In this document: piece after piece, positions 7,364-35,613 of the stretch
How the letters are laid out: each line of letters opens with the position of its first letter
Numbering within the stretch: position 1 is the stretch's first letter
DNA from: Solirubrobacterales bacterium
Lineage (GTDB): Bacteria; Actinomycetota; Thermoleophilia; Solirubrobacterales; 70-9
Assembly (NCBI GenBank): GCA_035605155.1
Contig: DATNHC010000009.1
Coordinates: 1 to 55,896 of the forward strand
Length of the DNA stretch: 55,896 nt
Direction of reading: 5' to 3'
Notes under the pieces: model-generated
Databases searched by the model: none
The model's input: the letters and a program-made list of their open reading frames with translations, nothing else
Told to the model about the DNA's origin: nothing
Program-made: the position numbers and the translations under genes

Positions 7364-7437
<74 letters not shown>

Positions 7438-29690: not shown

Positions 29691-29757
29691 TTCTTCGTGA
29701 ATTTAGAGCGACGTGGGGTTGATTTGCGGAAGCGGGCACCTACGTTCGGCGACAGCG

Positions 29758-29849
29758 GAGGGTGAAGCCGCGAGGTCGGGGCGAACGGATGACACCCGTG
29801 AGTTCGGACTGCTGTCCGGATGGGGTTCGAGTCCCCCGCCCTCCGCCAA
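29758..29849 (+). ncRNA. tRNA-like gene, class II (long variable arm), 8/4 acceptor/T-stem geometry, anticodon GAC, discriminator G, CCA encoded (allo-tRNA-like / tRNA-Sec-shaped)
   Basis: Hand fold: acceptor GGAGGGTG/CGCCCTCC (8 bp, one G-U). D-arm GCCGCG-AGGT-CGGGGC (6 bp with one G-G mismatch, 4-nt loop). Anticodon arm ACGG-ATGACAC-CCGT (U33, anticodon GAC, A37). 7-bp variable-arm hairpin TTCGGAC-TGCT-GTCCGGA. T-arm GGGG-TTCGAGT-CCCC. Then G-CCA. Not a canonical isoacceptor, because Val tRNAs are class I. Confidence 0.5.
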
Positions 29850-30020
29850 TGAATTGCTGTGCGCGTGAGAGTCGGAGCGAGGTGCAAATGTCATGCGGCC
29901 TGCGGGGTAGCACCTGCTCAACGAACCGCTCTCACGCCGCAGCGAACTCGGTATTTTGGCTGGTAGCCTTCTTCACCTCACGGGTGTCAGACGATTGCTG
30001 CAGTAGCGGCTTTACCAACG

Positions 30021-30048
30021 GCCCGCTTCGGCGGGCCGTTTCTTTGTC
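30021..30048 (+). terminator. Rho-independent terminator closing the tRNA-like/trailer transcript (also directly follows the stop of the convergent CPBP gene)
   Basis: GGCCCGC-TTCG-GCGGGCC followed by GTTTCTTTGT on the plus strand. The minus-strand reading lacks a T-tract. Confidence 0.6.
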
Positions 30049-30050
30049 CG

Positions 30051-30683
30051 CTACTGCGCCGCCATGGCAACCGAGTTGTTCAGCACGTGCAGGATGATCC
30101 CCGGCACGATCGAGCCGGTCTTCTCGTAGAGCAGGCAGAGCACGAAGCCGAAGGCGATCAGCGGGGGCACGGCGCTGATCCCGGTGGTTGCGTGCAGGGC
30201 GCCGAAGACCAGCGCCGCGACCAGGGCGGCCGCGACCCGCGGCAGGCGCCGGCGCAGCCCGCCGAAGAGGAAGCCGCGGAAGCAAACCTCCTCGCTGATC
30301 GGTGCCGCAATCGCGATCAGCAGGATCTGCACGGGCAGCGTGCCGAAGGCTTCGGCGATGTCCTCCTGTTCGGGGGCGCCGGCGATTGCGACGTAGAGAA
30401 TCGTCAGCCCCAGGTAGCCGCCGACCGCCGCGAACATCCACTTCACCGCCGAGAGTTGAAATCGGCGCAGGCCAAGCTCCTCGGCCGCCTGCCGCACACT
30501 CGCCCCCCGGCCGGCCGCGATCGCAAAGGGCGCCAGCAGGAATCCGAGCGCTGTGCCGAGCTGGACGAAAGCCGTCGCCGTATCGCTCAGATCCCCGTCC
30601 CCCGGACTGTCGGCAATCACCGCCGGGACCGACAACACAGCCCCCGTCGCCAGAGCCAGCAGGACACCGAGCACCCCGGTCAT
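30051..30683 (-). CDS. CPBP-family intramembrane glutamic endopeptidase (CAAX protease-like)
   Basis: Motifs ISEEVCFRGFLF and FGALHA...HVLNN. Multiple TM helices. I prefer the start at ATG 30683 (MTGVLGVLLALATG). The longer track ORF (to 31049) runs antisense through the MscS-like gene. Confidence 0.75.
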   Translation of the reverse strand: MTGVLGVLLALATGAVLSVPAVIADSPGDGDLSDTATAFVQLGTALGFLLAPFAIAAGRGASVRQAAEELGLRRFQLSAVKWMFAAVGGYLGLTILYVAIAGAPEQEDIAEAFGTLPVQILLIAIAAPISEEVCFRGFLFGGLRRRLPRVAAALVAALVFGALHATTGISAVPPLIAFGFVLCLLYEKTGSIVPGIILHVLNNSVAMAAQ

Positions 30684-34521: not shown

Positions 34522-35613
34522 CTAGGGCGACGACTTGTCCGGGCGAGAGACGTTGCCCTCGCCGGCTCCCTCCTGCTCCTCTGCCGCGGCCTCCTCCGGC
34601 GATGCGTGAATCACGCCGGTATGGATCGACCACCCCTCGCGCCGCCCCAACGCCGTCACCGCCCCCACATAAAGCACCTCGACCACCGTCAGCACCCCTC
34701 GCACGACGATCGCGATCAGCGAGCCGATCGCGAAGCTGTCGCCGGGCACGGCCACCTTCACCGCCCAGGCGAAGGCGGCGTCGCGGATGCCGAGCCCGGC
34801 CGGAGCCACCAGCGTGGCGAGAGCCGCCACGTAGCCGAAAGCCTGGGCTGAGCCGAGCACGAGTATCTCGCTGGGCGAGATGTCGCTGACCGAGCGCGCA
34901 ACGCAATAGATGCCGACCGCGATCACCCCCCAGTTGAGCGTGTAGAAGGCGAGCACGGCAATCACGCCGCGCAGCGGCATCGTCGCCGGCAACGGCTCGC
35001 GGCCGAAGGCGCGCAGCAGGCGATTCGCCAAGCGTCCGAAGACACGCGGATGCAGTGCCGTCAGGGCCAGCGGGATGAGCAGCAGCACCGCCCAGCGCCA
35101 TGGCTGGCCCTCGAGGTCGGGGTGGACGATCAGGAAGTAGGCGGCGACGCCAATCGCCGAGGTCGCCTGCAGCGCCTGTTCGTAGACGATGCTGGCGACG
35201 GTCAGCCGCCGCGGCACGCCGGCGCGCTCGGAGAGCAGCACGCGCCCGAGCACGTAGAGCACGCTGCCGGGCACATAGCGGGCCAAGAGCGGCTGCCCCC
35301 AGGCGACCTGGGACCGGCCCGCCCCCAGCCGGTAGCCGAGAAAGCGCAGGATCAGGTCCCAGCCGAGCGCGTTCAGCGCATAGAAGATCGGCAGCACGAC
35401 GAAGGCGGGGATCAACCAGCCGACGTGGAAGTGCACCCCCTCGTCCTTGATCTCGGCCCACTGGTCGACAACGGTGAGCACCAGGAAGCCGAAGACGAGC
35501 ACGGCGATGCCGAGCTGGATCGCGAGGCGGACACGCTTGCTGCGCGGTGGCCGCGCACCGATCTTCGAACCGGCCTCGCCGAGCCGGTGCAGGAGGGGCT
35601 GCTGGCGCTCCAC
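34522..35613 (-). CDS. Flippase-like membrane protein (LPG-synthase TM / UPF0104-like)
   Basis: Eight or so TM helices with a basic N-terminus. Resembles the MprF N-terminal domain family. No C-terminal aminoacyl-transferase domain is present. Confidence 0.6.
   Translation of the reverse strand: MERQQPLLHRLGEAGSKIGARPPRSKRVRLAIQLGIAVLVFGFLVLTVVDQWAEIKDEGVHFHVGWLIPAFVVLPIFYALNALGWDLILRFLGYRLGAGRSQVAWGQPLLARYVPGSVLYVLGRVLLSERAGVPRRLTVASIVYEQALQATSAIGVAAYFLIVHPDLEGQPWRWAVLLLIPLALTALHPRVFGRLANRLLRAFGREPLPATMPLRGVIAVLAFYTLNWGVIAVGIYCVARSVSDISPSEILVLGSAQAFGYVAALATLVAPAGLGIRDAAFAWAVKVAVPGDSFAIGSLIAIVVRGVLTVVEVLYVGAVTALGRREGWSIHTGVIHASPEEAAAEEQEGAGEGNVSRPDKSSP

Follow-up and report, generated by a model that had tools for sequence, protein, structure and literature searches.

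An allo-tRNA-type gene family of Solirubrobacterales with a structured tail that covaries with the anticodon, a possible cis brake on a missense tRNA

Allo-tRNAs are tRNA-Sec-like tRNAs with (8/4) and (9/3) geometry (Mukai et al. 2017, NAR 45:2776; PMC5389517). Published allo-tRNAs include ones with sense anticodons, one of them a Val anticodon, and serine was inserted efficiently in Escherichia coli (PMC5389517). Their reported hosts are Clostridia, Proteobacteria and Acidobacteria, with 35 anticodons in all; their anticodon stem, at 6 bp, is longer than the canonical one, and their genes often stand beside toxin-antitoxin or transposon genes (PMC5389517). We analysed a tRNA-like gene with a Val anticodon in a stretch of 55,896 nucleotides from a Solirubrobacterales bacterium (assembly GCA_035605155.1, contig DATNHC010000009.1; hereafter the window), which an earlier note, made from the sequence, had described as allo-tRNA-like. 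The gene belongs to a conserved family of uncultured soil Actinobacteria in which the tRNA body is followed by a structured tail that presents the cognate codon and covaries with the anticodon. The tRNA shape is thus of a known kind, not previously reported from Actinobacteria, and the tail is the new part.

The element in the earlier note was real, its span (29758-29849) being off by one: ARAGORN, a program suggested there, called a tRNA-Val(gac) at 29757-29848. The cloverleaf was the minimum-free-energy (MFE) structure of the isolated 96-nt stretch (-46.6 kcal/mol, 59% of the ensemble, z = -2.0). It reproduced the 8-bp acceptor stem, the 4-bp T-stem and the 6-bp/4-nt D-arm with one mismatch that had been folded by hand, as well as the loop AUGACAC with anticodon GAC and U33/A37; the long variable-arm hairpin was also present, with 8 bp counting terminal G.U pairs and not the 7 bp claimed. 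The best Rfam match was tRNA-Sec (RF01852), the covariance model also proposed in the note, with 40.7 bits (E = 7e-7); this is under the gathering score of 47. No match to the general Rfam tRNA model RF00005 was found, even at E <= 10, while a covariance model built from relatives gave the window copy 100.4 bits (E = 5e-22). The canonical tRNA-Arg of the window (7364-7437) has no encoded CCA, as had been stated; the CCA encoded by the tRNA-like gene was likewise found, and is not a family feature (14/94 members). A match to Rfam sX4 (RF02223; 21.7 bits, 29742-29912) was discarded, as it reflects only tRNA-Ser-like T and acceptor arms, and the sX4 consensus itself appears to hold an entire tRNA-Ser(CGA) gene with a trailer. 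A 111-aa open reading frame (ORF) at 29762-30097 overlaps the RNA unit and was taken as spurious.

Compared with the published class, the family shows a 12-bp acceptor/T branch split 8/4, a tRNA-Sec-like D-arm with a long stem and a tetraloop, a long variable arm (a 7-8-bp hairpin), a Ser-type discriminator (G73 or U73), non-serine sense anticodons and a near-miss of the tRNA-Sec model. The allo-tRNA-like assignment made in the earlier note from the 8/4 geometry, D-arm, variable arm and G73 therefore holds. The family differs from published allo-tRNAs in its anticodon stem, which has 4 Watson-Crick pairs and not 6 bp; since the outer positions are R.A/A.G, a 'sixth pair' would consist only of non-canonical purine pairs. 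It also differs in its hosts (Actinomycetota, Solirubrobacterales), in having three anticodons only (GAC, GAU, GAA) against 35, in standing at conserved chromosomal sites and not beside toxin-antitoxin or transposon genes, and in its apparently co-transcribed tail covarying with the anticodon. With tRNA-Sec (selC, RF01852) it shares the 8-bp acceptor stem, two-base linker, 6-bp/4-nt D-arm, long variable arm and G73. However, its T-stem is 4 bp and not 5, giving 12 and not 13 bp, its score is below the gathering score, and its anticodon was GAC, GAU or GAA in 93/93 readable members, never UCA; Binatia tRNA-Sec genes from the same scan formed a separate group. A canonical tRNA-Val has 7/5 geometry, a short variable loop and A73, whereas the window copy is 8/4 with a long arm and G73 and does not match RF00005.

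We searched metagenomes with the neighbouring YkuD protein and obtained 80 syntenic loci, 25 of which carried the tRNA-like gene (detected by ARAGORN, then by the covariance model), with a second copy in L004 and L035. Additionally, a pattern scan over 185,579 species genomes returned at least 119 stretches, so that distribution and copy numbers are lower bounds. Among the matches listed, two groups were separated by score. The first, which is the family, scored 77-102 bits and came from metagenome-assembled genomes (MAGs) of Solirubrobacterales, Thermoleophilia and 'Actinomycetes'. The second scored 42-55 bits, had the loop CUUCAAA and consisted of genuine tRNA-Sec genes, mostly from Binatia or 'deltaproteobacterial' MAGs. 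Altogether the family counts at least 94 distinct members, which among the matches listed occurred only in MAGs of Solirubrobacterales, Thermoleophilia or 'Actinomycetes' and in soil metagenomes. Among the matches listed, about 50 genuine tRNA-Sec genes lay in L084-L202 (e.g. L159 977-1069), with an 8/5 branch and a few from other phyla; these genes were near-identical over many species.

Covariation was assessed in a MAFFT alignment of 24 distinct copies that was fitted to no structure, and this comparison in relatives, also advised in the earlier note, revealed both conservation and compensatory changes. Cells of the cloverleaf were paired in 95.1% of cases, compared with 41-57% when the partners were slid, and the covariation score was reached by 0/500 shuffles. 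Thirteen pairs varied on both sides (D-stem 4, anticodon stem all 4, variable arm 4, T-stem 1). In the acceptor stem, pair 7-82 appeared as U.G, C-G and U-A, and the first T-stem pair changed from G-C to A-U in 7/24 copies; a fifth T pair is impossible because U65 faces C81. The D-arm kept its 6-bp stem and 4-nt loop RGGU with both sides changed in 4/6 pairs, a slight variant (GCGGCG-AGG-UGCCGC) being found in the subfamily ii described below, and the variable arm kept its hairpin at variable length with both sides changed in 4 pairs. The anticodon stem (29-32/40-43) was paired in 87.5% of cases. The T-loop UUCGAGU and the GG of the D-loop were conserved. These compensatory changes demonstrate that the tRNA-like gene is real and conserved, and neither a chance fold nor a pseudogene. 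Two copies (L010 2848-2935 and L020 2816-2903) are one C short in the 3' acceptor strand, which leaves G8 unpaired and gives a 7/4 branch; they may be impaired or represent a further shape variant.

Two subfamilies can be told apart. Subfamily i, to which the window copy belongs, has G73 (55/56 members, among them the window copy); in subfamily ii U73 prevails (U73 in 30, G73 in 8). The 94 members carried the anticodons GAC (54), GAU (37) and GAA (2) and no other, one (L008) lacking a recognisable loop, and Val and Ile types were often neighbours within one locus. C33 replaced U33 in six members. The two copies with the Phe anticodon GAA are L128 4394-4483 and L163 1547-1635; module B of the tail (see below) is altered to match in L128 (UACGUGUUUCA), and the module A loop of L163 still reads GUC.

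The tRNA appears, from sequence features on either side, to form the 5' end of a ~290-nt transcript that ends at an intrinsic terminator (Table 1). The -10 element of the putative promoter ends 10 nt ahead of tRNA G1, and the pattern TTGAnn-N16-18-TAnnnT-N8-12-G1 was present in 51/56 subfamily-i units. Since a generic sigma-70 scan called no promoter at the unit, the promoter is assigned by conservation. An identical terminator (CGGCCCGC...GCGGGCCGTTTCTTTG) trails the unit at other loci as well, where the whole promoter-tRNA-tail-terminator arrangement recurs. No gene lies downstream of the unit on its strand.

Of two conserved tail modules between the tRNA and the terminator, the first (module A) is a long hairpin capped by a three-way junction, one arm of which, 5-6 bp long, has a loop with the codon plus A in it. 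Module A of subfamily ii showed compensatory change in 17/29 predicted pairs, and subfamily i had the same layout. The codon in this loop tracked the anticodon: GAC occurred with GUC in 34 units and with AUC in 1, and GAU with AUC in 24 and with GUC in 5 (Fisher p = 1e-11). A small ORF within module A (SD-like GAGGUG, then AUG) was rejected: relatives have ACG, AAG or AGG in place of the AUG, and its stems show covariation, so that the stretch is read as RNA and not as coding.

Module B (29977-30016), found in subfamily i only, is antisense to the tRNA 5' half. Its 5' part forms a 22-nt inverted repeat with the tRNA (I2, 82% complementary) and carries the codon GUC plus A at 29986-29989; its 3' part forms an 11-nt repeat (I4, 91%) whose target is the acceptor 5' strand, the linker and the start of the D-stem. 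Family-wide, the two parts pair with tRNA positions 26-44 and 4-10, respectively. In 47 units, with the 7-nt loop as the sole anchor, the 19-pair helix between tRNA positions 26-44 and module B was paired in 88.4% of cases, compared with 25-34% after sliding; both sides had changed in 16/19 pairs, 0/500 shuffles reached the score, and positions outside the anchor were paired in 81-100%. Position 33 of the tRNA covaried with module B (U-A in 42, C-G in 4), and so did the third base of the anticodon. G.U pairs outnumbered A.C pairs (51 vs 19), which points to RNA on the + strand. Similarly, the motif TTCRCCC, 11-16 nt ahead of the terminator, tracked tRNA position 7 (p = 0.003), with C7 meeting G in 4/4 units and U7 meeting A in 24 and G in 5. 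The family model gave a weak antisense match over module B (29957-30020 on the - strand; 12 bits, E = 0.8), which fits an origin of module B from part of the tRNA, copied in inverted orientation.

The window transcript (29753-30048) had an MFE of -156.8 kcal/mol (z = -6.4), and in this predicted fold the tRNA 5' half pairs with module B and the cloverleaf is not formed. Over 50 subfamily-i units, folding at full length gained a mean of 15.4 kcal/mol in stability over separate folding of tRNA and tail, compared with 3.7 kcal/mol for non-cognate tails (p = 1e-14). The terminator competes with no predicted alternative helix. Because the cloverleaf and the alternative fold both covary, the results point to a switch.

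A codon presented to an anticodon by RNA recalls the T-box riboswitch, whose Stem I specifier loop likewise offers a matching codon plus purine. However, the codon here lies in a plain hairpin loop, in cis and 3' of the tRNA, with no downstream gene; neither a T-box sequence nor an antiterminator is present, the window unit has no T-box match in Rfam, and module B extends well past the codon, with 17 bp of antisense. In antisense control of the CopA/CopT and RNA I/RNA II kind, a kissing contact between loops followed by helix extension can inactivate the target; CreT/CreA is an RNA-RNA toxin-antitoxin pair. The unit resembles these systems in that a hairpin loop is complementary to a target loop and the complementarity runs on into the stems; it differs in that the target is tRNA-shaped and the antisense lies downstream on the same transcript and is not a separate RNA from the opposite strand. 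Streptomyces tRNA-ProX, a mistranslating tRNA of canonical shape, has the gene of a dedicated synthetase, ProRSx, adjacent to it. Both cases concern actinobacterial tRNA genes whose identity elements disagree with the anticodon, whereas the unit described here has no partner gene, a non-canonical shape and a cis RNA control element. An anticodon-complementary, covarying tail was reported neither in PMC5389517 and PMC7609411 nor in targeted full-text searches, most subscription journals lying outside these, and neither of the two papers gives a control mechanism for allo-tRNAs.

We tentatively read the unit, with slightly less than even confidence, as a missense tRNA on which the tail acts as a brake for as long as it stays in place; the guess in the earlier note that the molecule might be tightly regulated fits a covarying tail complementary to the anticodon. 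From the arrangement described above we infer the following course. The unit's own promoter would yield an RNA of about 290 nt with the tRNA at its 5' end and a stop at the intrinsic terminator. The module A loop (GUC plus A) would kiss the anticodon loop and, in subfamily i, module B would pair with positions 26-44 and 4-10 and open the cloverleaf into the more stable alternative fold. With the tail still attached or bound to it, the tRNA would have a masked anticodon and an unformed acceptor stem, allowing neither charging nor use. Cutting after G73 and degradation of the tail would release the tRNA, which could then be charged by seryl-tRNA synthetase (SerRS) through the long variable arm, G73 and G1-C72/G2-C71/A3-U70. 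These elements are consistent with SerRS recognition, and the tRNA probably accepts serine. Once released and charged, it would read GUC/GUU, and sister copies AUC/AUU or UUC/UUU. Since GUC, AUC and UUC dominate the Val, Ile and Phe codons of the window (149/262, 105/122 and 89/95, respectively; the note had already called GUC a major codon), a freely active Ser-charged copy would be damaging.

Several points weigh against this reading of the tail as a brake. The anticodon stem is weak compared with the longer one of published allo-tRNAs, and six members have C33, which is poor for decoding. The confinement of the anticodons to GAC, GAU and GAA hints at a specific role, because a SerRS that ignores the anticodon would leave it free to drift. 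The stable cloverleaf forms first in transcription, before module B could invade. Subfamily ii has no module B, and its ddG for tRNA-tail interaction was about 0; by this folding model, it is limited to a loop-loop contact of 4-5 bp, which may be too weak to inhibit. Additionally, covariation between the arms of inverted repeats could in part stem from gene conversion and not from selection on RNA.

If the brake is real, the tail is a concrete cis RNA control with three independent sets of covarying contacts, and it bears on how cells tolerate or exploit mistranslation by tRNAs with clashing identity and anticodon. It would also offer a compact natural on/off design for suppressor or missense tRNAs, of interest to genetic-code engineers, who already use allo-tRNA scaffolds. 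In any case, the family brings the allo-tRNA class to Actinobacteria, as a multi-copy gene set that looks vertically inherited and has Val, Ile and Phe anticodons only. A rather unlikely extension is an RNA-only circuit of a new kind, in which a tRNA that mistranslates GUC, AUC and UUC, probably with serine, is paired with its tail as antidote; the tail would kiss the anticodon through the codon loop and next unzip the cloverleaf through antisense pairing, the unit serving as an RNA toxin-antitoxin or a stress-triggered mistranslation switch. More boldly, the tRNA may be 'self-decoding', the cis codon satisfying the ribosomal decoding centre without mRNA.

Among the rival explanations, a non-decoding structured RNA is possible, although we consider it doubtful. 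In that case the whole ~290-nt transcript would be the functional molecule, never aminoacylated, with its anticodon docked on a cis codon domain, and it would mimic a tRNA-mRNA complex to bind or titrate the ribosome, a tRNA-binding enzyme or an anticodon nuclease. A tail that follows G73 without a break and has strong structure and conservation of its own would suit such an RNA, as would a full-length MFE other than the cloverleaf, the weak anticodon stem, C33 variants compensated in module B, and an anticodon set as narrow as expected for a docking-site loop. The rarity of an encoded CCA has been counted on the same side, but an unencoded CCA is normal in this genome. Moreover, the L-shape and the EF-Tu-compatible and SerRS-type features (the 12-bp acceptor/T branch, T-loop, D-loop GG, G73/U73 and GGAG acceptor) are all kept and covarying, and no conserved protein gene accompanies the unit. 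A selfish RNA-only toxin-antitoxin would have a stable missense tRNA as its toxin and the less stable co-transcribed tail as its antitoxin, and a cell that lost or silenced the locus would face the toxin without its antidote. The core mechanism is that of the brake reading, only the target of selection being different; we regard this model as unlikely. In its favour, the insertion is self-contained and brings along a promoter and a terminator, a syntenic site may have it or lack it, one copy has decayed, and several copies occur per genome region; the anticodons of the unit aim at the most used hydrophobic codons, and published allo-tRNAs often adjoin toxin-antitoxin systems (PMC5389517). Nevertheless, the units appear to have been inherited vertically, stand at a small number of conserved chromosomal sites, gave no viral-contig matches, and showed no clear terminal repeats or target duplications.

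The two remaining alternatives, both raised in the earlier note, fared much worse. An aminoacyl donor for cell-envelope chemistry, tied to L,D-transpeptidase, PBP and flippase-like genes, had been suggested by the position of the gene, which in the window does adjoin genes for YkuD, PBP1A, GT87 and an LPG_synthase_TM protein. However, CPBP-YkuD loci without the unit outnumber those with it, the two genes then being 10-40 nt apart; the unit is an opposite-strand insertion absent from most syntenic relatives and found at unrelated loci such as sucCD/TetR/thiolase, and no Fem/MprF-type transferase domain occurred among the scanned neighbours or recorded domain matches. This makes the envelope link very improbable. 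Least credible of all are the readings of the gene as a chance cloverleaf, as a canonical tRNA-Val that was mis-scored, or as a pseudogene decaying from tRNA-Ser or tRNA-Sec. The gene does fall under the Rfam thresholds and has one D-stem mismatch, L019 has lost the tRNA body, and L010 and L020 are short of one acceptor base. Against this stand at least 94 members with compensatory changes in all stems, the family-model E-value of 5e-22, and the conserved promoter and terminator, so that the pseudogene option fails for the family and finds no support for this copy. A tRNA-Sec identity is contradicted by the lack of a UCA anticodon, by 8/4 and not 8/5 geometry and by the score of true tRNA-Sec genes, which reached only 42-55 bits, and a canonical tRNA-Val identity by the long variable arm, G73 and the missing RF00005 match.

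Table 1. Coordinates in the window of the tRNA-like gene, its tail and its putative transcription signals
Feature	Position	Strand	Details and basis
Putative promoter	29719-29746	+	-35 TTGATT 29719-29724, 16-nt spacer, -10 TACGTT 29741-29746; conservation
Allo-tRNA-type gene (8/4)	29757-29848	+	ARAGORN, MFE cloverleaf, tRNA-Sec model, family model, covariation
Acceptor stem	29757-29764/29837-29844	+	GGAGGGUG/CGCCCUCC, 8 bp including U7.G
Linker AA, between acceptor stem and D-arm		+	MFE fold
D-arm	29767-29782	+	GCCGCG-AGGU-CGGGGC, 6 bp, one G.G mismatch, loop 4 nt
Anticodon arm	29785-29799	+	Loop AUGACAC; GAC 29791-29793; U33, A37; 4 Watson-Crick pairs only, flanked by G.A/A.G
Variable arm	29802-29821	+	8 bp counting terminal G.U pairs, loop 4 nt
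T-arm	29822-29836	+	GGGG-UUCGAGU-CCCC, 4 bp
Discriminator G73; encoded CCA	29845; 29846-29848	+	
Module A	29857-29942	+	Inverted repeats I7, I9; 35/55 subfamily-i units
Module A, outer stem	29863-29871/29929-29937	+	
Module A, loop codon of small hairpin	29890-29893	+	Cognate codon GUC plus A in loop
Module A, second hairpin		+	GCGGGG-UAGC-ACCUGC; 3' of the codon-bearing long hairpin
Module B, 5' part	29977-29998	+	Antisense to the anticodon arm of the tRNA and its flanks (positions 25-46); inverted repeat I2
Module B, 3' part	30006-30016	+	GCGGCUUUACC, antisense to tRNA positions 5-15; inverted repeat I4
Intrinsic terminator	30017-30048	+	Stem 30017-30040, then U-rich tail; 10 pairs, 8 G-C; terminator scan

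The window is a contig from a soil metagenome, and the closest named relatives of its proteins are from Solirubrobacterales. The unit separates the CPBP and YkuD genes, which share one direction, and is itself encoded on the opposite strand. Among syntenic loci with the CPBP-YkuD spacer the unit is absent more often than present, and the 10-40-nt gap left without it shows that the unit (~300-350 bp from promoter to terminator) is an insertion. Other loci carry it too, one such place being the space that separates sucCD from a TetR gene. Across loci, the neighbours are housekeeping genes (sucCD, TetR, thiolase, MMPL, HxlR, CPBP, YkuD), none of them related to tRNA. For the 'flippase-like' gene of the window (34522-35613, - strand; L003 7332-8423), LPG_synthase_TM was the only recorded match; an aminoacyl-tRNA-dependent C-terminal domain was absent from its recorded matches, which did not include a Pfam scan of our own, and NCBIfam gave none. 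A selenium link was dropped because the gene of the AIRS family that lies some 6 kb off encodes ThiL and not SelD. A phage origin was set aside, as viral contigs gave no match. With regard to a miniature inverted-repeat mobile element, the unit is inserted relative to empty sites; however, its inverted repeats are internal (tRNA against module B), filled and empty sites showed no clear terminal repeats or target duplications, and its copies are diverged, with compensatory changes.

Within the CPBP-YkuD spacer, L019 (Ga0157374_10002465) keeps the promoter, the tail with module B and the terminator and has lost the tRNA body; what remains of it is GGAGG|CCCTCCG, the result of a clean deletion between the acceptor strands. 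The same spacer in L007, L026 and L042, which have no tRNA unit, holds other, unrelated long palindromic insertions and thus seems insertion-prone. Finally, many subfamily-ii units are followed 3' by a conserved palindrome-rich region (GTCACGTTAC...ATATAAATTTATAT...GTAACGT, then CGATGGATGCATCG), seen for example in L113 5270-6635, L139, L155, L131, L093 and L143, and the next gene after this region is of the TetR family, apparently with its own operator.

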